64,000 nucleotides of DNA from a virus (lineage: Duplodnaviria; Caudoviricetes), in the IMG/VR virus record IMGVR_UViG_3300002220_000519, positions 21,407 through 85,406 of that record; one strand, given 5' to 3'. Shown piece after piece: positions 319 through 23,742 of this stretch (within the stretch, counting starts at the first letter, position 1; every line of letters begins with the position of its first letter). The notes beneath the pieces are model-generated. The model was not told the DNA's origin, searched no databases, and saw only the letters and a list, made by a program, of their open reading frames with translations. The position numbers and the translations under genes are program-made.

Positions 319-319
319 A

Positions 320-1915: not shown

Positions 1916-1942
1916 GGTTTTATCTCCTTTTGATGTATAATT

Positions 1943-2160: not shown

Positions 2161-2199
2161 GTCTAATTTTATATATGTAAGTTCCTTATCGCAAAGAAC

Positions 2200-2535: not shown

Positions 2536-2540
2536 AGTTT

Positions 2541-3187: not shown

Positions 3188-3236
3188 GATGGTCTCCCTT
3201 ATTAATGATCTGTTGATTATTTAAGTTAACCTGGGG

Positions 3237-3545: not shown

Positions 3546-3694
3546 CTGAGTAATCTCCTTGTTTTGTTCAATTTTTGTGGGTTTTCTCTTGTTTTTGGTG
3601 AATTTTTGAGAGGAGTGGTTCACCCCGAACCACCCCTCTTCTGGTTGTTGCGTAGGCACTTTGTTGCGACTCCTACGCTAGTCCCGGTAGGACA

Positions 3695-4015
3695 CTACTT
3701 GCCCTTGGCCTCTTCGAGCGGAACTTCCTGGGAGCTGGTGCCCACGGCTACGCCATTGATCTTGACTGAGTAGCGGGTGACCACGAATTTCCCTTCCAGT
3801 TCGAAAGTGGCGTCCTTCAGGGCTCCGGAGTTGACTGCCTTCCGGATGTTGCCGGCGAGGTTCCGATCCTGGAAGCTGAGAGGGTGGTTGGTCTCGGTGT
3901 TGTCCTTGGCGACCGAGACGGCTCTGAAGAAGCGGGGCTGGCCATCGCTTTGGGCGATACCGCTCAGCGGATCGGGGCGCAGGGATACCTGGAAACTGGT
4001 TTTCTGACCGTCCAT
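3695..4015 (-). CDS. RNAP-A-linked small beta-rich protein (paralogue of 7774-8112)
   Basis: RBS AAGGAGG; DPLSGIAQSDGQPRFFRA motif; directly downstream of RNAP-A. Confidence 0.75.
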   Translation of the reverse strand: MDGQKTSFQVSLRPDPLSGIAQSDGQPRFFRAVSVAKDNTETNHPLSFQDRNLAGNIRKAVNSGALKDATFELEGKFVVTRYSVKINGVAVGTSSQEVPLEEAKGK

Positions 4016-4034
4016 CGTATTATCCTCCTTTCTT

Positions 4035-6476
4035 CTAGGATTCCTGATTCATATGATCAGGTTTGTTTTCCAAGACAAGAGAGCATTCGGCAGGGGGAAG
4101 GACTGCGGGCAAGGGAGCGCTTAGATTATGCGCTAAGTAGTCGGACATACGCTCTATGGCTCCTGTGCAGGCGTAATGCCGAACGAGGCCCGGCAGGTTG
4201 TCTAAGGCCGTTCCGCCATATACCCTGTTCGCGAGTTCTCCCGGTCCGAGTGGTGCGATCAGTGTGAACAGGAAGTCGCTCATCTTGGATGTAGCTATGA
4301 CCTGTCCAAATCTCACTGCCACGGACACTCGATCTGTTACCGGTAGAGCGCGTACTTTAGCCGCAGCTTCGTAGACTGCTGTGAAGCTTGGCTTGCTTGG
4401 TTGGCGGCCGGTTAGGGCGTCCCCAGCTGCGTATGCAACTGCGTCTCGGAATGCGTCCATGAGGCCCTTGGCGATATCTTCTGTTACTGTGCTAAAGGCC
4501 ATCACGGGTTCTGCCATGATCTTTTGTGCGAAGCCGGCTCTGTCGAATGGTTGCTGCTCGACTATCTCGAAAGCGGGCAAGTTTCCGAGTAGGTTGTGCA
4601 CCCATCCAGTTAAGCATAGATCCCATGTCTTATCCGTATGGGAGACGTGTGATTTCCAGGTTGCGTCTATGCTGCTGTAGTGCTTTACTCGGGCGTTCCA
4701 GTCGAGTGCTGCCCGGCCCATTTCCTTGTGTAACCATGGCATTGTGGTTGGGAACCCCAGCGTCTTTAAATACCCTCTGACGCTACGCATGATACTTCTT
4801 GCGTCGAAGTCCCCGTTCTTGGTTGCCTGTATCGACATGTGGTAGGATTGGGCAAGGATATCTTCTGCATATGACAAGTCTACCCCTGTGCACTGAACGA
4901 TACAGCGTATAAGAGATAGCATGTTGCAGATGGTGCCGACTGATGCGCCACTGGCTTGTGTCTTGTAGGCATCTTCGTAGGCTGTGGTTACTACCCTGCC
5001 AGTTCCTTTGGTCATATCGAGGTGAGGCTTAGGTGAGGTTTTGAGTTTGAAATTGTAGATGAATATAGTGTCACCGTCGAAATCCCCGTTATGGAACTCT
5101 TTCCAGTCTTCGGGGTTAACGTAGGCCGCGTGATCTGGGGCGGTATTTGTTCTGAATGTGTAGTGAACCTTGTACTGCCTGATCTCCGACTTCTGATTGA
5201 TAGGGTACCGCACTACTGTGACGGTCTGGGGGCGACCAAATGCATTCCAGGCTTTGCGGGATAAGATGATGTCACCTCTCCTGCATTTGGCAGACGGAAG
5301 AGCCAGCGCGGTGTGGCCCTTCTCTGTGTAGAATCCTTTTCTTAATTGATTGGCATACCAATGGGCTGCCTGCCAGGTTGCTCTCTGACAGGTTGGGTGT
5401 GTATCGGCTGTGGCCCCGGCTGCGAATAAGAATTCAGCCTGCATACGAAGCTCACGATTAAGTCCGTCTTCGGTAGGGATGTTACCTGGTAATAGGTCGA
5501 ATGCATCGTGCACTTTTAGGATCTTTTGCATTGCGTAGCTGTCACCGAGGATAGCATCTTGTAAGTCCGTAACTAGAGGCACGAGTTCGGCTTCAACTAC
5601 TTCTCTCCAGTTGTCGCACAGGCCAAGCAGTTGATAGGAGAGATTACATCCTATGCGATAGAACCAGTCTGAAACAGAAACCAGGCGGAATTCGGAAATC
5701 TTGAAGGTGTGCTTGCCTGGCTTGCGTGGTTCTCCCTTGTCGTTGCCGTTCCAGTATAACAGCTCTCCTGGTTCATCGGTGTTGGGGTCAAGGTAGAAGA
5801 CTACCTTGCTTGAGTGTGGCCATATACCTGAAAGCTTGATGGCCGTGGGTAAATGGATAACTTGTCCTTCCTCGTTGATCATCTTGTCGAGATTATAGGC
5901 TGCTACCATATTGGCCATAATCTTCTTGCTTACGCGCATACAGCCGTCGAGACTCGGGTGTTCTTCGTCTGTAACGACTACATCGAATGCATACTCTGAT
6001 TGTGGTAATATGGCTGGTTGGTGAGAAACTCCGGCGGCTTTGGCATTTGACCATGGCACTTTGACTTGATCGTTGATGCCTACCAATAGTTTCCAGTCCA
6101 AGGCCATTTGCTTGGGGGTTGGTAGGATAACAGCGTTTGGGCCAACCTGTTTGTGGATCTGGTCCATTACATCTGTTGGCGTGTCGTTGTTGATCGGGGC
6201 TGGAACTTCATACCACCAGGAAACTTCAGGTTCGCCATTTGTATAGTTGAGCAGGCCGTTTGCGCCTCTCGTGTACCCGCTGTTCTTTCTGAGTACTGTG
6301 ACTACCTTAATTGTCTCCGAATGTTTAATTACATAGTCACGGACCCAAGAATCCCGTACACCCTTGATTTTTGCACGCTTATTTGAGTCTGGGTCGTTGA
6401 GCAGCACCAGAGGATCTTCTTCCCAAACCAAGTAGTTTGGGCTATCCTGTGTAGCCATAGGGATCTTCAGTCCCAT
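4035..6476 (-). CDS. Single-subunit two-barrel RNA polymerase A (YonO/QDE-1-like), 813 aa
   Basis: Ordered motifs LDGC, SKVVF, NDKG, NLSYQLL, TVTVVRYP, HNGDFDGD (5070-5090), VGTICN, MSIQATK; RBS AAAGGAG. Confidence 0.85.
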   Translation of the reverse strand: MGLKIPMATQDSPNYLVWEEDPLVLLNDPDSNKRAKIKGVRDSWVRDYVIKHSETIKVVTVLRKNSGYTRGANGLLNYTNGEPEVSWWYEVPAPINNDTPTDVMDQIHKQVGPNAVILPTPKQMALDWKLLVGINDQVKVPWSNAKAAGVSHQPAILPQSEYAFDVVVTDEEHPSLDGCMRVSKKIMANMVAAYNLDKMINEEGQVIHLPTAIKLSGIWPHSSKVVFYLDPNTDEPGELLYWNGNDKGEPRKPGKHTFKISEFRLVSVSDWFYRIGCNLSYQLLGLCDNWREVVEAELVPLVTDLQDAILGDSYAMQKILKVHDAFDLLPGNIPTEDGLNRELRMQAEFLFAAGATADTHPTCQRATWQAAHWYANQLRKGFYTEKGHTALALPSAKCRRGDIILSRKAWNAFGRPQTVTVVRYPINQKSEIRQYKVHYTFRTNTAPDHAAYVNPEDWKEFHNGDFDGDTIFIYNFKLKTSPKPHLDMTKGTGRVVTTAYEDAYKTQASGASVGTICNMLSLIRCIVQCTGVDLSYAEDILAQSYHMSIQATKNGDFDARSIMRSVRGYLKTLGFPTTMPWLHKEMGRAALDWNARVKHYSSIDATWKSHVSHTDKTWDLCLTGWVHNLLGNLPAFEIVEQQPFDRAGFAQKIMAEPVMAFSTVTEDIAKGLMDAFRDAVAYAAGDALTGRQPSKPSFTAVYEAAAKVRALPVTDRVSVAVRFGQVIATSKMSDFLFTLIAPLGPGELANRVYGGTALDNLPGLVRHYACTGAIERMSDYLAHNLSAPLPAVLPPAECSLVLENKPDHMNQES

Positions 6477-6548
6477 CGTTCACGCTCCTTTCACTAGTTG
6501 AATTAACGGTAAGATTCCTGCCAAAACAGGGAGAGAATTTGGCGAGGG

Positions 6549-6830
6549 TTATCGATCACTCGCAAGCTTCTCTGCTGCGTTAAGCTCCCTGTCCGCAGAT
6601 ATCTTCATCTGTTCTGCGTTACGGCCTGCTTCCCTGATGATGGTGGAGAGCGCGAACTCTAGGTGCTTGTAGGTGCCGACCTTCTGCCTGAGCCCGGCTA
6701 TGGTTGTTTCCTTGACTGCGACCTCGTTGGTTAGCAGTTTGTTGTCCTGTTCTAAAGCTGTGGTCTGCTCGGTAAGTTCGGCTATCTTCTTTTCGAGTTC
6801 CCTAATTCTGCGAAATGGATTTAACTTCAT
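6549..6830 (-). CDS. Coiled-coil protein
   Basis: Heptad pattern IRELEKKIAELTEQTTALEQDNKLL; RBS AAGGAGG. Confidence 0.65.
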   Translation of the reverse strand: MKLNPFRRIRELEKKIAELTEQTTALEQDNKLLTNEVAVKETTIAGLRQKVGTYKHLEFALSTIIREAGRNAEQMKISADRELNAAEKLASDR

Positions 6831-6959
6831 GTTTGTTCACCTCCTTTGCATAGTACTGGCGCTCCTTGCCTTCTAAGAAGCGGTTAACGTTTTGGGCTAG
6901 TTTCTGCCCGAAGTGTCCTGCGATGAGTGCGACTGCCATGCCGAACTTCATGCCGTTGT

Positions 6960-7286
6960 CTACGACGGCTTTTCCGGAGACGGCGGCACGGGCGGCTTGG
7001 AGTTGGAGTTCTGTTTGGGAGAGCACGGTTCCTCCTTTCCCTTGAGTTCGTCCATGGCCTGGTCTAAGGCCTGGTCTGCGGTTAAGTTTCCTTCTGCTTT
7101 GAGTTCGAGTGTGCGGTTGACCACTTGGTAGGTTAACTTGCCGGCCTCTATCTCGTTGTCTATCTTCTCCTTAGCACGCTTAGCTATTTTGGTTGCGCTC
7201 TTGGCTGCTTCGTCTCCGAGCCTTCCGAACACAGCGCCTATTGTGATGATGCCGGCTGCGATTTTCCGTTTGGTAGTGTCTTCCAT
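6960..7286 (-). CDS. Small amphipathic helical protein
   Basis: RBS AAGGAGG; KIAAGIITIGAVFG...TKIAKRA. Confidence 0.65.
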   Translation of the reverse strand: MEDTTKRKIAAGIITIGAVFGRLGDEAAKSATKIAKRAKEKIDNEIEAGKLTYQVVNRTLELKAEGNLTADQALDQAMDELKGKEEPCSPKQNSNSKPPVPPSPEKPS

Positions 7287-7728
7287 GACTGATCACCTCC
7301 TTTTAAATGGTTGTGTGGCCTTGTTCGATGCAGGGAGTTTGCGTCTTTCATTCCTTTCTCCTTATATTAATGGTTTAGTTGATTGCGAACGGCGCCAGCT
7401 TATTCACCCATGGCTTTACGCCTTTAAGTGGGAGTGGTGGGGCTGGCTACCAGGACGGTCAGTCACCACGACCGACACGGGCCTGGGCTGTTCAATCTCA
7501 CACCTGTGGAACCAGACCCTATATATGAATGTAAGTGTTTGCACCGCCCTCAATTAAGAGGACGGCGGAAAGGTTGCCAGGCCTAGCTTCGCTGTTGGGA
7601 AAAGGACAGCGCAAGCGTAGTTTTTACAACTACCCGGGTTGCAGGCAGTTAACCACGCGGGGAAGGCAACAGATTACTACCACCACAAGGGATATATGTT
7701 ATTGACACACATATCCTATATGAATTTT

Positions 7729-7765
7729 AAAAGACCGAAGGGAGCGTTAACTCCCCTCAGTCTTT
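7729..7765 (-). terminator. Intrinsic terminator after the RNAP-B partner gene
   Basis: AAAGACTGAGGGGAG-TTAACG-CTCCCTTCGGTCTTTT on the minus strand. Confidence 0.7.
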
Positions 7766-7773
7766 ATGAATGA

Positions 7774-8112
7774 TTATTCAGGCACGCAGGTGGCAGTCCC
7801 CCGACCCAGCACCAAATCCTGGCCGATATCGAAGACCTCGCGGACCTCGATGGCTTTCCTGGTGATCGGGATGGTGACGGTCTCACCCTTGGCCGACGCA
7901 GCGATCAGCTTGTCCCTGAGCTGGCCACCGATGGACTTGGCAGCGAAGCTGATGTGCAACCGGCGACCGTCCGGGAGCGTGGCCTGGAACAGGTAGGGCC
8001 GACCGTCTTTGAAGTTGATGCCGCTCATGGGATCGAAGGACAGAACGGCGTTTACGGACGCTTCGGCCAGCACCTGGGCGCCAGCCTGGAACTTCTTGGT
8101 GAAGTTGCTCAT
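7774..8112 (-). CDS. RNAP-B-linked small beta-rich protein (paralogue of 3695-4015)
   Basis: Start reassigned to ATG 8112 (RBS AGGAG); DPMSGINFKDGRPYLFQA motif. Confidence 0.75.
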   Translation of the reverse strand: MSNFTKKFQAGAQVLAEASVNAVLSFDPMSGINFKDGRPYLFQATLPDGRRLHISFAAKSIGGQLRDKLIAASAKGETVTIPITRKAIEVREVFDIGQDLVLGRGTATCVPE

Positions 8113-8351
8113 GGTAAGGTCTCCTAATAGAAGTTTAAAAGTTGACATACGCTCTGAGTGAGCTATGCCAAAACAAGTGAGTATTCGGCTAGGCTAGAGA
8201 CTTCGGCTAGGATAGACTGCAGGCTGGGGGGCCGGCAATCCTCTCCCTACGCATACGAGTTTAAATAGCTAGTGTATGACTACCTGGTTATAACCTAGTT
8301 GCGTTTAGTCTTCTAAATATGAGCGCCTGTCACGTTTGTTTTGTGTTGTTG

Positions 8352-10634
8352 TTACTTTTTGAATATGTTGTTAGCCAGAATGAACTGGTCAGGATAGGCC
8401 TCGACCAACTTCTCTGGGGTTAGTGTGTTGCAGGCTAAGCGTGCTAATCCCACGTGCCGCCAATCCATGAATGACCACATCTTTAATGTGTTACTCTTGG
8501 CCAGCTTGTAGCCCCACCTAAAGACGAGTTGCAAGTATACTTCGGGAGTAATGGTTACTTGTGTTAAGCCTGTAGCAACGCAGATTAGTCTATGGGTTTT
8601 GTGGTCTCTGGTCCACTTGCCAGGTACCCAGAATCTCCCGCCCTTACGTGCTGCTGCCTGTAGCCTGCGGAACTTGGAGAATGCCTTAGTGTTGTCGTGG
8701 TTCTCGAGTAGGTTCTGAGCAGCCTGACCAAAGATAGTATTGAAGAACTCGAATACTAGCTCTGCATCCTGATTGGGGGCCTTCAGGTACACACTATAGA
8801 AGCTCTTCGCCAGTATTGAGCGGGCCTGGTCTGTAATGCTTGGTATAGTTGGTAGGGCGGCAATCTTCTTCAACATATTGGTGCGCACGAAGTTGTCCCA
8901 CTCTTTACCAAGGTTAGCCATAGTCTTAGTCTCTGTTACCCTGGTGTTCCACGCCTCAAGGATGTTGTTCTTGGATACCTGCCACTTCTTTTGTCTCCAG
9001 AAGCAGCCTCTGATGTTGAAGTTCTTGCGCGCGTAGTCCCTAATGTCTCTAACGACATCATCACCACCTATGTCCATATGCTTGATGGCCTGGATGGACA
9101 TATTATAGGCGACCCCTGCGTTATTGATTAGCCCCTTAAGGTCAGCACGGTCAAAGGCCGTTTCTAACCCTATAGCTAGTTCCTGAGCTAAACACACACG
9201 CCCGATCTCCTTATATGCAGCCCGTGTTTCTAAGAACTCCTCATAAGGAGTGAGTGCCTCTTTGGCACCCTTCGCTATGGTTGGCATGGTCATCGTACCA
9301 AAATCCTTGGGCTTTAACGGCAGGTTAATGACAAAGATCAGATCCTTGTCAAAGTCCCCGTTATGATTGGTGCGCCATGAGTCAGGGTTAATACTTACTG
9401 TGTGCCAGCTAACCACCTTGTACTCAACTATTTCCTTCGGGCCATTGAGCGGGTAACGGACAACCCATACAGTGGCCGGGTTCCCCATTTTACGCTGGAC
9501 ATCAAGTGGCAGCCCTATTTCGTTGGGCTTTATAACGCGTGACGGTAGGGCTATCTCCATGAGTCCTACGTTCTTCGGCAGTGGAACCCCGCGAGATAGA
9601 TCTCTGGTTCTGATGCCCAGCAGTGTGACTGTGAAGTTGGCAAGTTCAGGTGAGAGCAACGGATTGCCGCCATTTTCGATGGCAAAGCGGGACATGGTCA
9701 GCCGATCCGCCCAGCGCGGGTTGACGAATGTATCGACTTCTGGATCGTAGTTTTCGTCGAACATAAACGTCTCACCGAGATCTATCAAGTCAAGTATGTC
9801 TGGTTGGATGTGTTCCATGTAATACTCCTGAATCTCCTCGGTCGTCCTGCCCGCTGGTACACCTGTTGACAGATAGTTTGCAACTGCTGTAATTTTGGTC
9901 ATCCAGGGCGCACCAAAGCGCTCGATAAGTTGTGTTCCATTTACTAGCAGCTGTGTTACCATGTGAGACAACCAGATACGATTAGTAGAGTAGTCATCAC
10001 CGAGTGCTACTAGCCTGAGGTCTCTGATGTCAAAGGTGATTGTACCCTGACGTTTGACACCCTTGTCGTTGCCCTTGAATGTAATTATGCTGCCCTCTAA
10101 GCCACGCTTGAAGACTATCTTTGTGCAGTTGGGCCAGATACCAGCAAACCCAGCAGCGTCTATGTTGCCTATTCTGTTCTGTGACACACCATACGCCTCC
10201 AAGATCTTGTCGAACAGGCCCTTTGGGATTGTGGTACAGCCGTCCTCGGCCCCTTCTTGCACGGTGTCTACTATCTCGGCGTCGAACTTGATTGGTACCT
10301 GGGTTGCGCGGCCAGGTTGTTGACTGACAGCTAAGGCTTTGCTACTGTCAATTGGGGCCTCTAGCGTTGGGTTCTTGGTAACCCAGACCAGCCCGGCCTT
10401 CATATCCGTCTTGCTCGTCCTCAGGAATCGTTCGCCTGGTTCCAAGACGCTCTCAGCTACATCCAGCGACACCTCAGTATGGTATTTGCTAATCTCTATA
10501 CCAACAGGTGTGTGGAAGAGCTCTTGTCCAGTTATACGTTCCCTAGTCACATGGTTAGCAACCAACCAGGCTGCCACGTGGCTGTTGACCGCGCCGAAGG
10601 GCTCAGTCTTGCGAGAGATATTAGTGTAGTTCAT
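8352..10634 (-). CDS. Single-subunit two-barrel RNA polymerase B (YonO/QDE-1-like), about 760 aa, DFDKD variant
   Basis: Motifs EDGC, TKIVF, NDKG, WLSHMVTQLL, TVWVVRYP, HNGDFDKD (9342-9362), MSIQAIK; probable start ATG 10634 (RBS AAAGGA); ORF is open to 10709. Confidence 0.8.
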   Translation of the reverse strand: MNYTNISRKTEPFGAVNSHVAAWLVANHVTRERITGQELFHTPVGIEISKYHTEVSLDVAESVLEPGERFLRTSKTDMKAGLVWVTKNPTLEAPIDSSKALAVSQQPGRATQVPIKFDAEIVDTVQEGAEDGCTTIPKGLFDKILEAYGVSQNRIGNIDAAGFAGIWPNCTKIVFKRGLEGSIITFKGNDKGVKRQGTITFDIRDLRLVALGDDYSTNRIWLSHMVTQLLVNGTQLIERFGAPWMTKITAVANYLSTGVPAGRTTEEIQEYYMEHIQPDILDLIDLGETFMFDENYDPEVDTFVNPRWADRLTMSRFAIENGGNPLLSPELANFTVTLLGIRTRDLSRGVPLPKNVGLMEIALPSRVIKPNEIGLPLDVQRKMGNPATVWVVRYPLNGPKEIVEYKVVSWHTVSINPDSWRTNHNGDFDKDLIFVINLPLKPKDFGTMTMPTIAKGAKEALTPYEEFLETRAAYKEIGRVCLAQELAIGLETAFDRADLKGLINNAGVAYNMSIQAIKHMDIGGDDVVRDIRDYARKNFNIRGCFWRQKKWQVSKNNILEAWNTRVTETKTMANLGKEWDNFVRTNMLKKIAALPTIPSITDQARSILAKSFYSVYLKAPNQDAELVFEFFNTIFGQAAQNLLENHDNTKAFSKFRRLQAAARKGGRFWVPGKWTRDHKTHRLICVATGLTQVTITPEVYLQLVFRWGYKLAKSNTLKMWSFMDWRHVGLARLACNTLTPEKLVEAYPDQFILANNIFKK

Positions 10635-10684
10635 TGGGTTCCTTTCGATTTGTTTGAAATTGTTTGTTTGAAGTTTAGATCTCT

Positions 10685-11068
10685 TTAGATCTCTTCTGCC
10701 GGATTCCAACCGTCTATGTTGAAATCCGGGGTGGTCATTGGTGCATCCAGTGTAGCCTCAGCCGTGCCGAGATAGCAGCACAATACCGAGTGCTGTATTT
10801 CGAACGCGGCCGGCCTATTGATGATGAGCCAGAAGGGCTCATACACACCAGCGGCTACCTGTCTATCGGCTGGTCTTAGGAACAGTCCATTCTGTCCATT
10901 GAGCAGTCGGCCGCCCTTCACGGCAAAGACGTTGTTAAAGGTCAGGTCTATTACGGCGACCTGTTTACCGATTGGTGTAGGCAGCCTTGTAATGGCCACC
11001 TCGGTCAACACTAGCCCCACTGGGAGACTAGTGATGGCCTTGCTTAGTCTGTGGATTTCTTTAGGCAT
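10685..11068 (-). CDS. spoVG: SpoVG-like nucleic-acid-binding protein
   Basis: LTEVAITRL...AVIDLTFNNVFAVKGGRLLNGQNGLFL...EIQHSVLCCY follows the SpoVG pattern, including GQNGLF; RBS AAGGAG. Confidence 0.7.
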   Translation of the reverse strand: MPKEIHRLSKAITSLPVGLVLTEVAITRLPTPIGKQVAVIDLTFNNVFAVKGGRLLNGQNGLFLRPADRQVAAGVYEPFWLIINRPAAFEIQHSVLCCYLGTAEATLDAPMTTPDFNIDGWNPAEEI

Positions 11069-11372
11069 GACCTTCTCCTTCAAAGATGTTTAATTGTTGT
11101 AATTTTTGTGGCTCCTGTCTGCTTCCTCCTGGTTTCCAGCCGGGTCGTGTTCTTCTTAGCACCATGGCCTTCTCCCAACTTGTGAGACCCCTAATGGAGA
11201 GCAGTTGGTAGTTCAGCCACGTTCCGTTCAACCACATCCCGTTCATCACTATGACCTTGTTTGTGACGTGGTTGACACTGACTTTGAAACTATAAGCGTC
11301 CCCCACCCTCTTGACTGCCCAGAACGACTCTATAGCCTCAAGTAGCAGGTGCCGGTATTCTATGACTGCCAT
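11061..11372 (-). CDS. Hypothetical protein
   Basis: Start reassigned to ATG 11372 (RBS GAGGAGG). Confidence 0.55.
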   Translation of the reverse strand: MAVIEYRHLLLEAIESFWAVKRVGDAYSFKVSVNHVTNKVIVMNGMWLNGTWLNYQLLSIRGLTSWEKAMVLRRTRPGWKPGGSRQEPQKLQQLNIFEGEGHA

Positions 11373-11566
11373 GATCTTATCCTCCTCATAAGTTTCTTCC
11401 AGTAGTATGGTATAATCACCACAATTAATGATAGTCCCACTATGGCGACAATTGATGCTAAAATGAGGTACCAACCTAGCCTACCAGCTGCGTTCGAATC
11501 GGTTGCGGCCAGAAAAGCACCGACCAAGAACGTGCAGAAAGCTCCGAGGGCCATGTTCTTATCCAT
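11360..11566 (-). CDS. Two-helix membrane protein
   Basis: Hydrophobic segments, basic C-terminal tail, RBS AGGAG. Confidence 0.55.
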   Translation of the reverse strand: MDKNMALGAFCTFLVGAFLAATDSNAAGRLGWYLILASIVAIVGLSLIVVIIPYYWKKLMRRIRSWQS

Positions 11567-11831
11567 TTATCTCTCCTTCTCTTTCTTTTAGGGCCAAGTC
11601 GACGACCCTGTTAATTACTGGGTTGAATATGCATGTACTGTTACTGTTGCAGCTCAGTTGATGATAGCACCCAGCACAGACCTTTTCTGCGTGGGTCTTG
11701 GCATCCTCAACCCACCCTATTCTTATCATGTTGTCCACTATTCTGGTTTGTGTTTGCAGCCACCTCACTCTCCTCATGGTAGCGGCTGTCACTCTCCTGG
11801 CCTCCCAGGACCTTGTTTCGTTCTTTGCCAT
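11559..11831 (-). CDS. Hypothetical protein with Cys cluster (CAGC...CNSNSTC)
   Basis: RBS GGAGG; overlaps the next gene in an operon-like way. Confidence 0.55.
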   Translation of the reverse strand: MAKNETRSWEARRVTAATMRRVRWLQTQTRIVDNMIRIGWVEDAKTHAEKVCAGCYHQLSCNSNSTCIFNPVINRVVDLALKEREGEING

Positions 11832-11944
11832 TATAATACCCTCCTAATTAATTTGTTGTTGTGGCACATGACGAGCACCACAATGTTACCGATGATTGGA
11901 AGTTGGGTCATTGCCAGTATTGCCTTTTTCATGGTCAGTCCTTT

Positions 11945-12160
11945 CTATTTATTGGTTGTTGTAAGATGAGCGTAAGCCTCTGCCGCGAAGTCCCTGTTGT
12001 TATCTTCTTCTTTCTCCTGCAACTCGTAAATTATGTCAAGGAAGTCCTGCGCCATCCCGACGATCTTTGGCTCCGGGCAGTGGGCTACTATGTGTTGCAA
12101 ACCCATGATGCTCCAGCTCTCTATTGAGAACTCTAGAGTTTCCATCCATGTTGCCCTCAT
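11945..12160 (-). CDS. Hypothetical acidic protein
   Basis: RBS AAAGGAG. Confidence 0.55.
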   Translation of the reverse strand: MRATWMETLEFSIESWSIMGLQHIVAHCPEPKIVGMAQDFLDIIYELQEKEEDNNRDFAAEAYAHLTTTNK

Positions 12161-12172
12161 TGTGGCTCCTTT

Positions 12173-12505
12173 CTAATAAGCCTCGTGATCAATAACGATA
12201 TCGAGGCGGTTTACCTGAACTCCCGCGGTGGGAATCCAAGTGTTAATGTAGGCTACGAGGCTGTTGGCTTCCTTTAGGACCTTGTTACAGTCCTGAATCC
12301 CCTTGTTCAGCCTCTCTAGCTGGGAGGTGGACTCTGTGCCCGCTCTCACTGCAATGTAGTCCCTTCGGGTCTTCTTCACAGTGACTAGTAGTACGGTTGC
12401 CAGTGCAAGTATCCGATCCTTGGTGCCTTGGGGCATGGGTGTGTTTGTTTCCTTCCAGTCCCAGACAAAGGACTGTAGGAGGTTGAGTAGTAACCTGTGT
12501 TCCAT
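12173..12505 (-). CDS. Hypothetical helical protein (first gene of the left arm)
   Basis: Probable start ATG 12505 (RBS AAAGGGG). Confidence 0.55.
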   Translation of the reverse strand: MEHRLLLNLLQSFVWDWKETNTPMPQGTKDRILALATVLLVTVKKTRRDYIAVRAGTESTSQLERLNKGIQDCNKVLKEANSLVAYINTWIPTAGVQVNRLDIVIDHEAY

Positions 12506-12574
12506 GATAGTTCCCCTTTCTTTGTAGTTACCTTTGCGTCCCTGTTTTTCAACCCTTTTCTCGCTCAGGGTCAT

Positions 12575-13380
12575 TTATGAACAGGCTATACAGCTCATGC
12601 ATCGACTAGGTTATGCGATCCTGTCGAAGTTAATGGCTGGCTGTATTAAGCACGCCACATGCTTACTGTCATAGTCTACTAGGGAGACCAGCTTCTTATG
12701 ACAGTGTCGTTGCCCAGCGGTACTAGCAGCCATGTGTCAGTTAAGATAGTATGGGATATGGCCTACAGATTTAGTGGTCTATGGTTGTGTCATAGCCACT
12801 CGTGATAAGGCATATAGATTACAAGGCTATATACCTGAGCTACACCTGATTATAGCATTACCGTCTATGATCGTTGGGCGTTTATCTCCCTCTTTTAGGG
12901 GTAACATTCGCACCTACTAGACCATGATTTATAGTGAGAGAATAAGGCTCACTATTGTTCATCAGCCTTTGAGGTTGCTATGCTCTATGACTGACGACGG
13001 AGTTATTATTGCTAGACATTATTAGGGAGGTTGTTACTACCTTATGACCTCGAGATCCCTTGGTCCTCTCCTCCTAAGATACCCTAGAATGTCACTCATG
13101 TTGAGACTACATCTTTCAAGGACATGTCTTCCTTGATTGATACCCATATGGGCCTGGCATACTTAAATGCTCAGCTGCATTTTAGGGACACCCGGGGGGC
13201 TCGAAACCCTAGGTTAATTCCCTTATTATTCTACTATGGTCTCAGCAAATCATTTCGTTTTTCCGGAAAATCCCTATAGAATTTTCCAAAAATCCCGGCA
13301 GCAGTCCCCAAAAAACCCCCAAAGTAATTCCAAGATTTCACCATTCCCTATCAGCTTACTTAGGTAGTCATATACTGTAG
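12575..13380. other. Long non-coding divergence region; possible genome end, packaging site or origin
   Basis: No ORF of 60 aa or more on either strand; CCCGGGGGG at about 13191-13199 followed by phased A/T/C runs at 13256-13325. Confidence 0.45.
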
Positions 13381-13385
13381 GCCTA

Positions 13386-13414
13386 TTGACTTTTAAGGTA
13401 AAATGTGGTATAAT
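13386..13414 (+). promoter_or_regulatory. Consensus sigma70/sigmaA promoter with extended -10
   Basis: TTGACT-17 bp-TATAAT preceded by TGG. Confidence 0.85.
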
Positions 13415-13439
13415 GTATATATAAATGAAAGGAAATAAA

Positions 13440-13580
13440 ATGACAGACCAAATGAAAACTAAGGTGTTTGATTGTCCTGTTCATGGGTGGGAAATACAGG
13501 CCTTCTGTTTTCGTAGTGAGCTTCCTGAAAATGCAGATCGGTGGCACAAAGCAACAATAACACTCGATGAGGAAAAATAA
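13440..13580 (+). CDS. 46-aa hypothetical protein
   Basis: RBS AAAGGA, first ORF after the promoter. Confidence 0.45.
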   Translation: MTDQMKTKVFDCPVHGWEIQAFCFRSELPENADRWHKATITLDEEK

Positions 13581-13643
13581 CTATGTTAAGTTCACTCCGG
13601 CGATTGCATAGACTTTAAATTAAAAGTATAAAGGGGGAGGGTA

Positions 13644-13820
13644 ATGATAACAGTTAAGAACCTAAGAGAGAGACTTGTAGGCCTTAATGATGATGACAGG
13701 GTGTATGCTTATGAGGGAGAGGCTACTGGGATAGTTATTGTAAGGAGAGACGAGGATGGGAAATATAACGAATTGTGCTTTATAGAAGCAGCTAATACTG
13801 TTAGAGATGAAAACAAATAA
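13644..13820 (+). CDS. 58-aa hypothetical protein
   Basis: RBS GGGAGG; MITVKNLRERLVGLNDDDRV... Confidence 0.55.
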   Translation: MITVKNLRERLVGLNDDDRVYAYEGEATGIVIVRRDEDGKYNELCFIEAANTVRDENK

Positions 13821-13835
13821 CTAAAAGGAGGGGAA

Positions 13836-14264
13836 ATGAGTAAACTAGGAACACTACTAAAGTACTTCCAAGCTACGAAGAAGGTCAATAATACTACAAC
13901 AACATACTGGAGTCCTGGTGGGGCTGACGCGCACGTATATATTGATGGTGAGGAGCAGCGTACTTGTACAGGTATAACGTACAGTATTGCGAATAAGGCT
14001 GGTCAGCTTGCGGCCAAAGGCTCACTCTTATATTCCCACCCTGATTCCCCTGGTACTTCTCGAATGAAGGGTATGCATAACATACGGCTCCAACTAAACA
14101 ACGAATGTGGAGACGCTGCACTGGTAATTGACTTCAATAAGGTGTCATTTACACTTATTGATAGTGGAATTGCAATTGATGATATAGCTATGGAAGAACT
14201 TCATTTTTTTGAAGCTAAGGGTGTTGTCTATACTAAGTCTGTTACATATAAATATTTGGATTAA
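13836..14264 (+). CDS. Displaced tail-tube-like paralogue 1
   Basis: GGADAHVYID..GITYSI..NNECG..IDDIAMEELHFFEAKGV aligns with tube 58244-58960 (SGADIILVIH..GISFSI..MNEYG..VDDITSETQMTWICRGI). Confidence 0.65.
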   Translation: MSKLGTLLKYFQATKKVNNTTTTYWSPGGADAHVYIDGEEQRTCTGITYSIANKAGQLAAKGSLLYSHPDSPGTSRMKGMHNIRLQLNNECGDAALVIDFNKVSFTLIDSGIAIDDIAMEELHFFEAKGVVYTKSVTYKYLD

Positions 14265-14486
14265 CGAGGACACATGAAAATTAAATACATGCCGGCCATC
14301 CTGCTAGTTATTACCCAGGTGAGCAGATCTGTTGGGGGCGCTCTAATAGAAGTAAGTATGGTGTGAAGCTAGTAGATACACTTAAGCAGATCAAGCAAGA
14401 GCAGCGAGCATCTATAAGTTGGAGAAAAAAGAGGGGTTACGGTGACTCTCATTTCAAATATGGCTACGTGAAGGTCGAGGTTTAAT

Positions 14487-14696
14487 ATGAAAAAGAACAT
14501 GACAATCTTTAAACTAGATGCTATAATCCAGGTTAAAGATAAGGAAGTGGCGGACAAGCTTATTAACCAAATTAGTGAGCTGCTTGAAGATGAAAGTAGA
14601 ACTGATATCGGTAGCAGCGTGGTTAACCTTCATTGGGTAGCAGATCAAGAGAAAGCCGCCAAGGAACTTAAAGCAGCATTAAAATTGTGGAGCTAA
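14487..14696 (+). CDS. Hypothetical protein
   Basis: RBS GAGG; 69-aa ORF. Confidence 0.55.
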   Translation: MKKNMTIFKLDAIIQVKDKEVADKLINQISELLEDESRTDIGSSVVNLHWVADQEKAAKELKAALKLWS

Positions 14697-14697
14697 T

Positions 14698-14901
14698 ATG
14701 ACTTGGTACCCTAAAGAAGATTTCCTATGGGATAAGGGCCTAGAAGAACAACTGCAGATAACGATAGACTCCTGTAGACTTCATTACACAAATGAAGAGA
14801 TCTATAATTACCTAGACTTATGTACGGAGCTTGGAGTTATCGCTGGCCATCATAAAACTTCGGTTAAACTACCAAGGACAGGAAGAAACGTAACTTTATA
14901 G
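14698..14901 (+). CDS. Hypothetical protein
   Basis: RBS GGAG; abuts the previous gene. Confidence 0.5.
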   Translation: MTWYPKEDFLWDKGLEEQLQITIDSCRLHYTNEEIYNYLDLCTELGVIAGHHKTSVKLPRTGRNVTL

Positions 14902-14915
14902 AAGGCGTTGCTAGG

Positions 14916-15092
14916 ATGAGTTATACAGATACCATAATGAAGATTACTGATACTGAGTCGATTGTTATTAGAGCCGAACCTGACTACGTTACAATCTTCG
15001 TAAATGATGGAGAAAACGATCAATACGCCACGGTTGTTCTAACAAAGGAACAACTGAAGGACTTGATTAGGAACCTTAATACTTTATTGTAA
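14916..15092 (+). CDS. 58-aa hypothetical protein
   Basis: Open frame filling the gap between neighbours (my translation). Confidence 0.45.
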   Translation: MSYTDTIMKITDTESIVIRAEPDYVTIFVNDGENDQYATVVLTKEQLKDLIRNLNTLL

Positions 15093-15102
15093 GGAGACTA
15101 AC

Positions 15103-15273
15103 ATGGCAAAACCAAACGGATTACCAGTACCAAAAGTACCAAAGATGAACATTAAAACAGTATCTAGTCCAAAATCAACCGGCGGTGGTTTAGCGGGGGA
15201 AAAGGCTACACTGTTAGGCGCCAAGGGTCTTAAGATACAAAAGCCACAAGAAGCATTCCCAAAAAAGAAGTAA
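15103..15273 (+). CDS. 56-aa Lys/Pro/Gly-rich basic peptide
   Basis: RBS AAGGAG; MAKPNGLPVPKVPKMNIK...PKKK. Confidence 0.55.
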   Translation: MAKPNGLPVPKVPKMNIKTVSSPKSTGGGLAGEKATLLGAKGLKIQKPQEAFPKKK

Positions 15274-15283
15274 GGAGATAAGT

Positions 15284-15745
15284 ATGAACTGGCTTAAGAA
15301 ACTGTTTAGACGGACGGTTGTGCCGGTGGCTACAGGGGGGCAAAAACCATTCCTATGCTCGGAAGATTGTCAGATATACCTGGATGGCGCCTTCATTGCA
15401 ACCATATTGAGCATACAGTTTGATGAGGATAGAATAGTATACGATGGTGGGACACTCGTGGGCTCCCATCTAGTTACGCGTAAAGCCAAAAAGACTGAAG
15501 CTGCGTTTGTTGTAACAGGAGATATTGATGAACTAATGTTTGTGCAGGTTGGTGATAATTTAGCACCGCAACTCCCAATAGATGACAAACCACGTAATAT
15601 GGAACTAAGGTTTACAATAGGAGATACGAGTCGGACTATTATATTAGAGGATTTTGTAATAGTTGGGCACTCGTATAGGTTTGACGTAGACCAATTGGTT
15701 ACAACACGAAGGCTAACCTTTAAAGCAAAAAGATTAATACTGTAG
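15284..15745 (+). CDS. Displaced tail-tube-like paralogue 2
   Basis: CSEDCQIYLDG..ILSIQF..IILEDFVIVGHSYRFDVDQLVTTRRLTFKAKRL resembles the tube-fold motifs of 58244 and 60172 (VVSIQF). Confidence 0.5.
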   Translation: MNWLKKLFRRTVVPVATGGQKPFLCSEDCQIYLDGAFIATILSIQFDEDRIVYDGGTLVGSHLVTRKAKKTEAAFVVTGDIDELMFVQVGDNLAPQLPIDDKPRNMELRFTIGDTSRTIILEDFVIVGHSYRFDVDQLVTTRRLTFKAKRLIL

Positions 15746-15752
15746 GAGGACT

Positions 15753-16070
15753 ATGGAAATCAACTTGGTCTTTCAAGAAGCCGGCAAAACCTATTCCTGT
15801 GAGTGGACAAAAACACTGTTGCCGCGTAAGGGTGATATTATACAACTACCAGACACACCATCTCTTGTTGTTAGAGTTATAGTTTTTGAAATGGATAAGG
15901 TTTTGGTTTACCTTGCAAATCCACTTGCCAAAGGTCGTGTAGTTGAGATGGTCCCAGACGGTGACTCTTTCCGCCCAGTTGCAATACAACACGTTACTAC
16001 GCTTGGTCCACTTTCACCACTTATGGAGATAAAAGATGAGTCCGATGCTACAAGCACTACTAGACCTTAA
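15753..16070 (+). CDS. Hypothetical protein
   Basis: RBS AGGAGG; LLPRKGDIIQL motif. Confidence 0.6.
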   Translation: MEINLVFQEAGKTYSCEWTKTLLPRKGDIIQLPDTPSLVVRVIVFEMDKVLVYLANPLAKGRVVEMVPDGDSFRPVAIQHVTTLGPLSPLMEIKDESDATSTTRP

Positions 16071-16344
16071 GGTACAGCTTAGTAACTTTATTGAGATGAA
16101 CCCACACCTAACCGCTGCGGAGCTTCTCCCCCTCCTAGAGTCGCAAGTAGAGGGTTGTACGGCTGTTGAGCGCTATTGTATTACAGAGACGTCACCACAC
16201 GAATATAAGATTAGCCTTTTAGCGGCCGTACCTAGTGTAACACCAACCAGCCTTAGCTTTATACTACTACCAAAGACAGAAACTGTAACACGAGAACAAC
16301 TATTCAAGAATAGACTTAAAGAGGGTAAAGGTTGGGATGATTAA
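16036..16344 (+). CDS. Hypothetical protein
   Basis: RBS GGAG; overlaps both neighbours. Confidence 0.5.
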   Translation: MSPMLQALLDLKVQLSNFIEMNPHLTAAELLPLLESQVEGCTAVERYCITETSPHEYKISLLAAVPSVTPTSLSFILLPKTETVTREQLFKNRLKEGKGWDD

Positions 16345-16984
16345 AGCCTTCCTACCAATATCTTTTGTAGACTGGGACGGGCATGTTGTCTCCGTGATAT
16401 TTATTGGCGGCTGTAATTATAATTGTCCATACTGCCATAATGAATGCCTTGCTCAAACTCCAGATAGACTTGAGACTATGGGGTTTGAGGACACAATAGA
16501 CCAACTTCAGAGATATGAAAAGTGGTTGGCTGGAGTAGTAATTACAGGTGGAGAGCCAACACATGACATAGGTCTTCCTGTTTTACTTAGAAAGATTAGA
16601 GAGCGCGTACCGGCCTGTCGTATTAAACTCGACACCAATGGATCGTATCCAGCTCGACTTAAGCTTCTAGTTGAACAAAGGTTGGTAGACTATATCGCGT
16701 TGGATGTGAAAGGGGACCGAAGTTACTATACTGAAGTGCTCGGTGTTGATGCTGAACCGGTCTTCGAAAGTATTAAGTATGTTATGAACTGCGGGCTATC
16801 ATATGAGTTTAGAACAACATATTACCCAGCTGTTAATCTTGAAAATGTTGGAAAGCTTATTAAAGGCGCCGAGCGTTGGTCTATACAGAGACTTGTGATT
16901 GAGCAGCATAGACAAGATTTTGTACCAGTAGAGAAACTAGAATCCGATAACGCACACTTTGTTAAAACACTAAAAATTAGATAA
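16337..16984 (+). CDS. nrdG: Anaerobic ribonucleotide reductase activating radical-SAM protein
   Basis: SFVDWDG..IFIGGCNYNCPYCHN (CxxxCxxC), VVITGGEPT, KLDTNGS, DYIALDVKG, YEFRTT. Confidence 0.9.
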   Translation: MIKAFLPISFVDWDGHVVSVIFIGGCNYNCPYCHNECLAQTPDRLETMGFEDTIDQLQRYEKWLAGVVITGGEPTHDIGLPVLLRKIRERVPACRIKLDTNGSYPARLKLLVEQRLVDYIALDVKGDRSYYTEVLGVDAEPVFESIKYVMNCGLSYEFRTTYYPAVNLENVGKLIKGAERWSIQRLVIEQHRQDFVPVEKLESDNAHFVKTLKIR

Positions 16985-16996
16985 GGATTAATTACT

Positions 16997-17296
16997 ATGG
17001 GCTTACCAACTACACTCAAAGTCAACGGGCATGTACTAAAAGTAGAGTATACAGACCTAGTTAAAGACCAAGGTATGGATAAAGTAGGCTATCTTCTTAT
17101 GGCGCAGAGTCTTATACGAATAGATAGAAACGTGAGCGAGCAGATACAGGAGCAAACTGTAGTTCATGAAGCTATGGAAGCAATCGACACAATGAATGAC
17201 TTGGGGCTAAACCACACACAAATTTCAGTAATAGCAGAGGCGTTTTATCAACTAATTAAAGACAACAAGCTAGAGTTTGGCCCAGGAAAGGAATAA
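16997..17296 (+). CDS. Small metallopeptidase-fold-like phage protein
   Basis: EQTVVHEAMEAI, a degenerate HExxH-like motif. Confidence 0.45.
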   Translation: MGLPTTLKVNGHVLKVEYTDLVKDQGMDKVGYLLMAQSLIRIDRNVSEQIQEQTVVHEAMEAIDTMNDLGLNHTQISVIAEAFYQLIKDNKLEFGPGKE

Positions 17297-17297
17297 A

Positions 17298-17576
17298 ATG
17301 AGGCAGCGCCTACATTGCAAACGTTGTACCTGGGACTGGTTCCCACGAAAGGAGCTAAGCCAAATCATACTTTGTCCTAATTGTAAGTCGCCATATTGGA
17401 ATAAAGATAGACTTGGTAGCCCAACGGCTGTATTAACAGTAAAAAGTAAGATTAAAGATGTTGTGTTAGAAGCCACTAAGCCGTTTTTAGGTATGACAGT
17501 TTCAGCACAAAATCTTATGGATCTACGCAACGCCTTGATTGTGGCGCTGTCAAAAGTAATAACAGACGATTCTTAA
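17298..17576 (+). CDS. Zn-ribbon protein (paralogue of 1168-1383)
   Basis: CKRCTWDWFPRK...ILCPNCKSPYWN; RBS AAAGGA. Confidence 0.65.
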   Translation: MRQRLHCKRCTWDWFPRKELSQIILCPNCKSPYWNKDRLGSPTAVLTVKSKIKDVVLEATKPFLGMTVSAQNLMDLRNALIVALSKVITDDS

Positions 17577-17588
17577 CATGGGAGCATT

Positions 17589-17618
17589 TTGTATTTAACC
17601 CCATGTCTGTGTTATAAT
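17589..17618 (+). promoter_or_regulatory. sigma70-type promoter for tRNA-Asp/Pro
   Basis: TTGTAT-18 bp-TATAAT with TGn, 13 nt before tRNA-Asp. Confidence 0.6.
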
Positions 17619-17631
17619 TATACATATAATA

Positions 17632-17711
<80 letters not shown>

Positions 17712-17784
17712 CGGGGTGTAGCACAGTTGGTAGCGCGTCTGGTTTGGGACCAGAAGGCCGTCCGTTCAAATCGGACCACCCCGA
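17712..17784 (+). tRNA. trnP: tRNA-Pro (TGG), no encoded CCA
   Basis: Acceptor CGGGGTG/CACCCCG, anticodon arm TCTGG-TTTGGGA-CCAGA, GTTCAAAT. Confidence 0.92.
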
Positions 17785-17795
17785 CATTTGAAAAG

Positions 17796-17883
17796 GCACG
17801 TTTCCGTTTTTACGGCGTGCAAGTGGCTCACGCCCGGTTCACCCGGGTATATCCCTTCACTGGTATATTACAATGAGCCACTT
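17796..17883 (+). ncRNA. Candidate structured RNA: hairpin plus three-way junction
   Basis: GCACG..CCGT/ACGG..CGTGC hairpin, then a 10-bp helix AAGTGGCTCA/TGAGCCACTT enclosing two stem-loops. Confidence 0.5.
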
Positions 17884-17915
17884 AGACTTACTTAAAATAT
17901 TATATATATATATAA

Positions 17916-22047: not shown

Positions 22048-22074
22048 ACAAACTAACATCGGAGGATACCCCAA

Positions 22075-23742
22075 ATGGCCATAATTGATGATATTGCTAT
22101 TGATACGGTTAATAAGATTATTAGCCGGTCAGCTAGCCCATCTGCAACAGTATATAGCGTAAACGCGCTGTACTCTGTTCTGATGGACCAGTTTGATGAG
22201 TTGACAGCATTGGATGACACAGTGCCTATGTCAGCTCAGACTCCTACCTCATATACCATGACAAACGGTTGGTATATACAAGAAGCCTTAACCAAGTACC
22301 TTAATGGTGGTGCTATTCAGACCAGTGGCTATGATAACGTAATTCATACATTAGTTCTAGATGGTACCTACACCTCAGCAATTACCAGCGATATTGGAAA
22401 ACAAGTAACTGATGACGCTACCCCAGTTGGCGCTTTACTGGATTATGATAATACACTACAAAAGTGGTGGATTCGTACTGGTAGCGCAACTCCAATAGCC
22501 GACAACTCAGTTATGGCTATTGCAACTGGAACTGGAGCAGGAACTGCTCTTGGTGCTTCAGTTGAGGGTGAAACAATATTTGCTAACCCCTACACCCTAG
22601 GTACCCTAGAAGGAACTCCGCCAATCTATATTTTCCAGGCAGGCGAAAAGCTTACATCTTGGTGGTCAGATGGGCACTTTGACATTCTTGTTAAGGTTCG
22701 TGAGGCTAGTGTAGACATAGATAGCAAGAAAATCACTGTGTTCTCCCGTGTGTGGACTGACTTGTACGACAACTTCAATATCACACTAACAACAGCCGGC
22801 CAGAACGCCGTGCCTCTAGGTACGTTCAATGACCTGAACAACCAGAGTACTATCGGTGATGTAGAGGATTTACAAGATGGCACAGTAGCAGACATTGCTA
22901 TTGACTTTAGCTTCACTTCCCCATTCTCCTATGATATTGGAGACGGCGCCGGGCCACAGAACTATAACGTGCAGATTGACGCCGACGGCCGTAGATTATC
23001 TGACGTATATGAAGTCTGTAAATACTGGACTGCGGAGGATTCTACAAAGCAATTAGAGACCAACAGCGATGGAAACTTCGTTGATGGCGAAGAGTATCGT
23101 TATGCCAAAGATACCTACGCAGAAGTAAAGGCTTCTCCACTAGGTACATTCGCTGGCGGTAAGTTCTTCGGTGCTCGTGGTATATACTTTACAAATCTAC
23201 ATGCAGATGACGCTCAGTCATTTCAGCTGGTAGACGCAGCTGGCGTAACCCGCAACCCACCAAACTATCAGGCGTTTACCGTAACAGGTCTGGTAGCGGG
23301 TGACCGTGTTGCAGTATATCCAGCATCCGGTGGTGACGTAAGCAAGACTCAGTATTCGCTAAGCGGCTCAAACCCACTAAACAAGATTACTGTAAGCGTT
23401 GCAATTCCAGTAGACACTCCGGCTGCAGGAACAATTATTGTTGTAGATGACGATAGTACAGAAACTGCGTATGCTTATACATCATGGTCTGGAAGCGACT
23501 TCAACGTCACTATTTCTGCCGGTGTATACTCGGGAACAGAAACAGCCTATGTACCCTACATCTATGCTGAAGCTTCTGGCGCATCAGTGTCTGAAACAAC
23601 GACAATCTATGTATCAGACAAATCTGTTATTACAAAGGTGCGCAAGGCAGGCATTCTACCATTTACTACTACCGGTACTTATAGCGCAACTGGATACTCA
23701 GCAACCGCTATTCGTACTACAGACAGTATCTACACTCCGTAA
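22075..23742 (+). CDS. Putative virion structural protein, 555 aa
   Basis: Acidic and Thr-rich; C-terminal LPFTTTGT module shared with 20623-21615; RBS GGAGG. Confidence 0.65.
   Translation: MAIIDDIAIDTVNKIISRSASPSATVYSVNALYSVLMDQFDELTALDDTVPMSAQTPTSYTMTNGWYIQEALTKYLNGGAIQTSGYDNVIHTLVLDGTYTSAITSDIGKQVTDDATPVGALLDYDNTLQKWWIRTGSATPIADNSVMAIATGTGAGTALGASVEGETIFANPYTLGTLEGTPPIYIFQAGEKLTSWWSDGHFDILVKVREASVDIDSKKITVFSRVWTDLYDNFNITLTTAGQNAVPLGTFNDLNNQSTIGDVEDLQDGTVADIAIDFSFTSPFSYDIGDGAGPQNYNVQIDADGRRLSDVYEVCKYWTAEDSTKQLETNSDGNFVDGEEYRYAKDTYAEVKASPLGTFAGGKFFGARGIYFTNLHADDAQSFQLVDAAGVTRNPPNYQAFTVTGLVAGDRVAVYPASGGDVSKTQYSLSGSNPLNKITVSVAIPVDTPAAGTIIVVDDDSTETAYAYTSWSGSDFNVTISAGVYSGTETAYVPYIYAEASGASVSETTTIYVSDKSVITKVRKAGILPFTTTGTYSATGYSATAIRTTDSIYTP

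Follow-up and report, generated by a model that had tools for sequence, protein, structure and literature searches.

A shortened tail-tube paralogue and a possible second tube-fold protein upstream of the virion module of an uncultured contractile-tailed phage

The DNA analysed here (64,000 nucleotides (nt); hereafter the window) forms the final 64 kb of an IMG/VR record of 85 kb from a hydrocarbon metagenome, IMGVR_UViG_3300002220_000519 (positions 21,407 to 85,406). A contig of 210,996 bp encodes the same proteins, and the source is an uncultured contractile-tailed phage of ~211 kb whose tail genes in the window follow the order of Bacillus phage 0305phi8-36. We consider two small open reading frames (ORFs), ORF-A and ORF-B, which the initial annotation described as paralogues of the tail-tube protein encoded far from the tail operon. 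Both ORFs exist where they had been placed, the tube gene does start at 58244, and the distance of 44.4 kb is correct. The two ORFs and the tube genes of the tail module are as follows.

13836-14264, + strand: ORF-A, 142 amino acids (aa), a diverged, shortened tube paralogue by tube hidden Markov model (HMM), MAFFT alignment, AlphaFold2 model and homology to gp108 of 0305phi8-36
15284-15745, + strand: ORF-B, 153 aa, an orphan, tube-like by ESM Atlas features and model only
58244-58960, + strand: T1, the true tail tube, 238 aa, of the 0305phi8-36 gp140 type, directly after the sheath gene and matching phrog_9206
58974-60026, + strand: T2, a tube paralogue, 350 aa, gp141-like, with the long hairpin kept
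60172-61875, + strand: T3, a tube-derived protein, 567 aa, gp142-like, with the long hairpin kept

ORF-A, we found, arose by an old duplication of the phage's own tail-tube gene and has evolved fast. In pairwise BLASTP it aligns with T1 in two weak collinear high-scoring segment pairs (E-values 0.011 and 0.07). A tube HMM made from 42 diverse tube-family proteins was run on all 180 window ORFs of at least 60 aa, and ORF-A ranked fourth of the 180, behind T1, T2 and T3 (23.3 bits, E-value 4.5e-7); the next ORF had an E-value of 0.46, and the top score among 500 shuffles of ORF-A was 5.3 bits. Two HMM domains match in collinear order, residues 15-54 on model positions 4-43 and residues 82-135 on positions 139-191, which bears out the earlier statement that ORF-A carries the N- and C-terminal tube motifs. 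Like tubes of the 0305phi8-36 type, ORF-A has the N-terminal strand motif (SGxD...GI.YS) followed by the C-terminal core (NExG, G...DDI). Those tubes, however, are 190-260 aa long and encoded beside the sheath, whereas ORF-A has 142 aa and lies 44 kb upstream of the tube gene. Eight family-invariant residues are kept in the MAFFT alignment (G29, D31, N89, E90, G92, G111, D115 and D116).

The principal change in ORF-A concerns the stacking hairpin. The initial annotation had seen the segment REKAPLYALGSVDPIAVSRGKRGI of the true tube reduced to ANKAGQLAAK, and the MAFFT alignment agrees exactly, with 16-18 columns missing from the hairpin tip. The hairpin segment has 20 residues in ORF-A versus 37 in T1, and it is long in T2 and T3. 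The invariant hairpin motif REKAP...RGKRGIAG (REK, RGKRGIAG) is absent from ORF-A, as are DQIPPFD, the helix and the variable insert, a 15-residue loop replacing ~90 alignment columns. Overall, the beta-sandwich core is kept in ORF-A, and the tip of the stacking hairpin and all family-invariant motifs around the hairpin are lost. The isoelectric points also differ, being near neutral for ORF-A (6.4) and ORF-B (6.7) versus acidic for T1-T3 (4.4-5.0).

Searches of sequence libraries set both ORFs apart from the true tube. ORF-A did not reach the E-value threshold of 0.1 in a scan of the PHROG library, and neither ORF matched a tube family in Pfam, PHROG, NCBIfam or PDB sequence searches. A word-index search of 5.8 billion proteins returned nothing beyond ORF-A and ORF-B themselves, tblastn of both against 50,697 phage records gave no relatives, and zero variants of either were found in the DNA runs of one hydrocarbon metagenome study, the sole runs with the sequence. 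Since the two have no relatives among 5.8 billion proteins (word-index search) or 1.84 billion representatives (HMMER, run with ORF-B), against more than 1100 relatives of T1 in protein libraries, we infer that ORF-A and ORF-B evolve fast.

ORF-A is predicted to adopt the tube/Hcp beta-sandwich fold, as a tube-fold check by Foldseek and VIA-align indicates at moderate scores. Its AlphaFold2 model, made with a tube-family alignment as input, has a mean predicted local distance difference test score (pLDDT) of 67, with residues 30-138 mostly at 70-83. Foldseek matches of this model in the PDB are almost exclusively tube or Hcp proteins (E-values from 3e-3, template modelling (TM) scores 0.35-0.40) and include the AFP, PVC, diffocin, Mu and phage 812 tubes and type VI secretion system Hcp; in VIA-align, nearly all of 50 rows are tube/Hcp proteins (Z 5.0-6.9). 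The top structural neighbours are Afp1 (6RAO/6RAP), Pvc1 (6J0B), Hcp1 (1Y12) and the phage 812 tube (8Q01). Such tubes of contractile injection systems and Hcp align with the model at VIA Z 5.6-6.9 over 84-104 residues, Z values below 8 being moderate, and with Foldseek probabilities of 0.80-1.0 where listed; their sequence identity to ORF-A is 5-16%. Unlike these neighbours, which are parts of structural or secreted machines, ORF-A and ORF-B have no accompanying sheath, baseplate or secretion genes. For ORF-A the ESM Atlas has a single-sequence model of its own, independent of the tube alignment, whose TM-scores to tube clusters are 0.63-0.73. Foldseek matches in the BFVD include baseplate-tube and tail-completion proteins. 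The match of highest identity in the Foldseek list was BFVD entry A7KUN1 (204 aa), which is probably gp108 of 0305phi8-36, since its length and accession series fit.

6671-7285 of 0305phi8-36, rightward: orf108, encoding gp108 (ABS83666.1), a hypothetical protein of 204 aa

Direct comparison of ORF-A with gp108 gave a BLASTP E-value of 7e-5. None of 2000 shuffles reached the local alignment score (z-score 6.4) and none of 500 the global one (z-score 6.0), and the MAFFT alignment of the two spans their full length, with 38 columns shared and 30% identity. The genes also correspond in position. Past the left terminal repeat and the point where the strand switches, orf108 comes first among the rightward genes, and gp112, several virion proteins and the terminase lie downstream of it; ORF-A is likewise one of the first rightward genes once the strand has switched in the window. 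Gene order is conserved further on, gp112 matching 33482-34300 in the window (E-value 3e-15), just before the terminase region. ORF-A and gp108 hence form a small family whose two genes both stand next to the virion arm at corresponding places in the genome, a link that is new here. The tube HMM does not detect gp108, which is thus tied to the tube family through ORF-A; a profile of ORF-A and gp108 compared with the tube profile gave a probability of 3%, weaker than ORF-A alone. Compared with ORF-A, gp108 is extended at both termini, and its hairpin segment is longer (32 versus 20 residues). Given a homologue in the corresponding position of a phage with a tube of only 34% identity, ORF-A appears to have been retained for long. 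Homology of ORF-A to gp101 of the same phage (z-score 4.4) was also considered and was rejected after inspection and an HMM test.

At the sensitivity used, no member of the ORF-A/gp108 family was detected in Bacillus phage vB_BceM_WH1 (WH1), phage Edson, KLEB27-3, Moorella phage MTATph1, ME3 and IMG/VR. Six related phage genomes compared with ORF-A, ORF-B and the ORF-A/gp108 profile gave no match, and searches for related loci with RNA polymerase RNAP-B or the ORF-A/gp108 alignment found none. Between the gp108-like gene and gp112 the window phage has ~18 kb more DNA than 0305phi8-36, comprising NrdG, six tRNAs and collagen-like, DUF2793 and CBM5/12 fibre-like genes. The region upstream of orf108 holds a weak promoter match only.

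ORF-B, 43 kb upstream of T1, is a different case, and the claim that it too is a tube paralogue was not confirmed at the sequence level. BLASTP against the tube found nothing, the hhalign probability was 0.5%, and the tube-HMM score was -0.5 bits, equalled by at least 25 of 500 shuffles. ORF-B stayed in the noise with an HMM enlarged by ORF-A and T2 and with phmmer, and it showed nothing significant against all left-arm proteins of 0305phi8-36. The invariant tube hairpin motif is absent; in a by-eye alignment a segment of hairpin length is present. The sole HMMER matches, two tandem-repeat proteins, were rejected as spurious, their scores summing weak repeats, and the one podophage match found by tblastn at E-values up to 10 was irrelevant. 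The single-sequence AlphaFold2 model (pLDDT 34) was unusable. The ESM Atlas gave ORF-B a feature score of 0.96, which about 1 in 100 shuffled proteins attains and which the tool's calibration ranks as a good lead; 178-183 features are shared with phage clusters, one of which is 90% Phi812_tail_tube, and the Atlas model has TM-scores of 0.58-0.60 to the Phi812_tail_tube and Phage_tube_2 clusters. On these features and this model, ORF-B probably has a tube-like fold, and it is likely a second small tube-fold protein of untraceable ancestry; its paralogy to the tube is not confirmed by sequence. Of the pair of tube paralogues first proposed, the ORF-A half is confirmed (HMM, MAFFT and fold model) and the ORF-B half, as far as sequence goes, is not. 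Directly upstream of ORF-B, 15103-15273 encodes a Lys/Pro/Gly-rich basic protein of 56 aa, probably disordered, whose stop codon lies beside the ORF-B ribosome-binding site.

One could take both ORFs for decaying duplicates or chance reading frames without function, ORF-B perhaps being unrelated to tubes. Their orphan status fits this, as do the sequence signal of ORF-B, which is not above chance, and its unusable AlphaFold2 model. We consider such an origin improbable: both frames are intact and preceded by strong Shine-Dalgarno sequences (AAGGAGG ahead of the ATG at 13836, TAAGGAG ahead of the ATG at 15284), the eight family-invariant residues persist in ORF-A, its homologue occupies the same position in a phage with a 34%-identical tube, and the ESM feature score of ORF-B is seldom reached by shuffled proteins.

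The part that ORF-A has lost is well characterized in other tail tubes. The solved SPR tube has a first long hairpin, beta-h1, that extends far into the neighbouring lower ring and is described as pivotal when one ring assembles on another (PMC11850899). The immune sensor DSR2 holds the monomeric tube core, the hairpin beta-h1 threading a hole in the sensor; DSR2 activation falls by half when the hairpin tip loop is deleted and is lost altogether with other deletions (PMC11850899). Avs16 has been modelled in contact with this conserved tube hairpin too (PMC12803255). The role in ring stacking that the initial annotation gave the hairpin is thus backed by the literature, as is its contact with immune sensors. 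Tail-tube protein triggers bacterial immunity via DSR2 and Avs16, and the hairpin lost from ORF-A is both the stacking element and a surface that these sensors contact. A non-stacking tube copy kept for long at a fixed position would be a natural candidate for a structural mimic, in phage-host conflict or in control of tail assembly. An anti-DSR2 protein is known from phage SPbeta: DSAD1 stops this sensor of tail-tube monomers (PMC10981675, PMC11087589). It would be a functional analogue of ORF-A only if ORF-A were a decoy, and the DSAD1 literature that we found does not describe it as a tube relative. We found no literature linking tube paralogues to anti-defence.

The same structural change would suit regulators of the phage's own tail assembly. 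ORF-A and ORF-B might cap tubes or hold monomers, chaperones or the tape measure, and so prevent premature or aberrant polymerisation or poison the tails of co-infecting relatives. ORF-A keeps the beta-sandwich core with its NExG and DDI motifs and has the stacking hairpin cut, and beta-h1 of SPR is pivotal for ring-to-ring assembly (PMC11850899). We regard this role as quite unlikely, given that the genes are unlinked to tail genes, that gp108 has a longer hairpin segment, and that relatives KLEB27-3, MTATph1 and ME3 have no such gene at the sensitivity used.

ORF-A and ORF-B lie in a cluster of small genes at the start of the rightward block, with the following features in it or beside it.

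13425-17785, + strand: cluster with ORF-A and ORF-B, ~11 small orphan ORFs, NrdG2 and two tRNAs
13386-13414, + strand: promoter-like site of sigma-70/sigma-A type, TTGACT-17 nt-TGgTATAAT, at the start of the rightward gene block
14499-14527, + strand: second full promoter-like site, ATGACA-17 nt-TGcTATAAT, between ORF-A and ORF-B
16337-16984, + strand: NrdG2, anaerobic ribonucleotide reductase activase (159 bits versus a cut-off of 131)
17632-17785, + strand: tRNA-Asp and tRNA-Pro
12849-12857, - strand: a further TGnTATAAT site

The strong promoter of the initial annotation is present as a motif at 13386, with ORF-A third and ORF-B about eighth among the ORFs that follow. Extended -10 sites (TGnTATAAT) are enriched in the window, with 13 found versus 3.5 +/- 1.8 expected. 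Four rightward sites have a 5/6 match to the -35 element (13386, 14499, 30656-30684 and 32045-32073), and they occur only in the cluster or the tRNA island. At three other rightward extended -10 sites the -35 match is 3/6: 17610-17618 (before tRNA-Asp), 46227-46235 (before the head-region gene at 46273) and 60139-60147 (before T3). This distribution fits two promoter classes, possibly temporal, with the ORF-A cluster read by unmodified host polymerase. The early expression that the initial annotation proposed for ORF-A and ORF-B is a possibility suggested by the promoter motif only.

The small ORFs of the cluster match no PHROG families. NrdG2 has no adjacent nrdD; it fits an anaerobic host in a hydrocarbon habitat. 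The tRNA-Asp/tRNA-Pro region (17577-17915) has an extended -10 site before it and a 10-bp helix after it (17821-30/17874-83) with no U-tract. Right after ORF-A, 14275-14367 is a 30-codon ORF, absent from the ORF listing, which has a GAGGA ribosome-binding site and encodes a hydrophobic peptide (MKIKYMPAILLVITQV...).

A parallel case occurs in two phages of the same group. WH1 gp277 (6764-7285 of the WH1 stretch) and its Edson orthologue (PV796108.1, 219367-219864), 59% identical to one another, are distal tube derivatives. Gp277 is chimeric: its first 50 residues are tube-like (hhalign probability 98%; 62% identical to the true tube of KLEB27-3) and include the first hairpin arm, and the other 120 residues are unrelated. 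The neighbours of both genes encode ribonucleotide reductase, thioredoxin, single-stranded DNA-binding protein and RecA, ~105 kb from the tail module. Like ORF-A, gp277 is small, derives from a tube gene and lies at a distance from the tail module with non-structural neighbours; unlike it, gp277 arose independently, and it shows no significant similarity to ORF-A or ORF-B.

Our preferred but tentative explanation is that ORF-A and ORF-B are soluble, non-virion, non-stacking mimics of the free tube subunit. The two genes would be transcribed from full sigma-A-type promoters alongside non-structural genes (NrdG, tRNAs) and made as soluble proteins that stay out of the virion and cannot extend a tube. 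They would imitate the unassembled subunit and occupy a partner that normally binds it, most likely a DSR2- or Avs16-like host sensor that detects tube monomers, or alternatively the phage's own tail-assembly machinery. Loss of the hairpin, near-neutral charge, fast evolution, long retention, the promoters, the NrdG2 and tRNA neighbours, the lack of a virion note for gp108 and the WH1/Edson parallel are all consistent with this possible role. What ORF-A does is a testable question via gp108, since both 0305phi8-36 and its host, Bacillus thuringiensis, are cultivable.

Several points weigh against such mimicry. A sensor that grips the hairpin might miss a hairpin-less copy, which would then not block it. 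With 32 residues in the hairpin segment of gp108, loss of the hairpin is not a defining trait of the family. The model of ORF-A is of middling quality (pLDDT 67, Z below 8), its AlphaFold2 fold test is not fully independent because tube proteins were in the model's alignment, and the predicted fold of ORF-B comes from one evidence source. The promoter sites are motif evidence only. A host-type promoter need not mean early transcription either, because the phage has RNA polymerases of its own; in phage P23-45 the early genes are read by phage polymerases, and those of the middle and late phases by the host polymerase (PMC10770324). GenBank notes gp113, gp114, gp116 and many other proteins of 0305phi8-36 as virion proteins by mass spectrometry; gp108 has no such note, and this leaves room for gp108 as a low-copy virion protein, which it may be. 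The gene orf209 of 0305phi8-36, a distal paralogue of the tail protein gp142 that is itself a virion protein, offers a precedent by analogy for a distal tail-protein paralogue inside the virion (PMC2147016). Finally, the cluster lies on the strand of the virion module and merely 2.5-4.4 kb upstream of its start at 18226. The wider layout of the window is this.

1-12574, - strand: leftward genes, including two single-chain RNA polymerases
13425 to the window end, + strand: rightward genes
18226, + strand: collagen-like fibre gene, the start of the virion module, followed by further fibre-like genes and a tRNA island
37177, + strand: terminase
42895, + strand: portal
49598, + strand: major capsid protein
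54717-58184, + strand: sheath, matching sheath PHROGs

As the 44 kb up to the tube gene are mostly virion genes, ORF-A and ORF-B stand at the left edge of the virion arm. The distance given in the initial annotation is right, and the remoteness from the tail operon that it was taken to mean is misleading, the virion module starting at 18226 on the same strand. These facts suit another explanation, in which ORF-A and ORF-B are low-copy virion or tail-assembly parts: tube-fold ring adaptors such as an initiator, a terminator-side ring or a fibre-anchoring collar. For such parts a position at the left edge of the virion arm, shortly upstream of the fibre, head and tail genes, would be unremarkable. 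Baseplate-tube and tail-completion proteins use the tube fold again and are present among the BFVD matches of the ORF-A model, orf209 provides a virion-incorporated example (PMC2147016), and extended -10 promoters precede late genes too. A virion role is the most serious rival of the mimic reading, and we rate it as somewhat less probable. Against it, the gp141 and gp142 paralogue slots are already filled by T2 and T3 beside the tube gene, ORF-A has lost the family-invariant assembly motifs, and the immediate neighbours are NrdG and tRNAs. ORF-A and ORF-B are moreover orphan sequences, whereas structural paralogues are conserved, and the missing mass-spectrometry note for gp108 points weakly the same way.

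The mimicry that we tentatively favour for ORF-A and ORF-B has a broader form. ORF-A, gp108 and perhaps ORF-B could belong to a recurrent, undescribed accessory class of non-stacking tube copies with many independent origins, read from host-type promoters and acting as decoys or competitive inhibitors of sensors of the DSR2/Avs16 type. We rate this generalization as unlikely.

Some observations concern the tail module itself. The sheath gene encodes 1155 aa, ~2x the usual length, and matches sheath families at its ends only (residues 29-264 and 855-1154); because only the two ends match, it appears to contain a large inserted middle region. T1 is 34-43% identical to the annotated tubes of 0305phi8-36 and KLEB27-3, with 34% identity to that of 0305phi8-36. 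Models PF09393, PF06841 and phrog_2756 did not match the phage's own record, and PF18906 matched T1 alone, weakly. Two overlapping chaperone-like genes come after T3. The label of phrog_9206, 'major head protein', is wrong, the records of 0305phi8-36 and KLEB27-3 calling this family tail tube; the mislabel has spread to RefSeq (NC_009760.1 ORF140) and to newer records (MTATph1 CDS0020 and CDS0022). In the tail module of MTATph1, a gene annotated as S-adenosylmethionine decarboxylase (22048-22404) lies between the tube gene and a tube paralogue.

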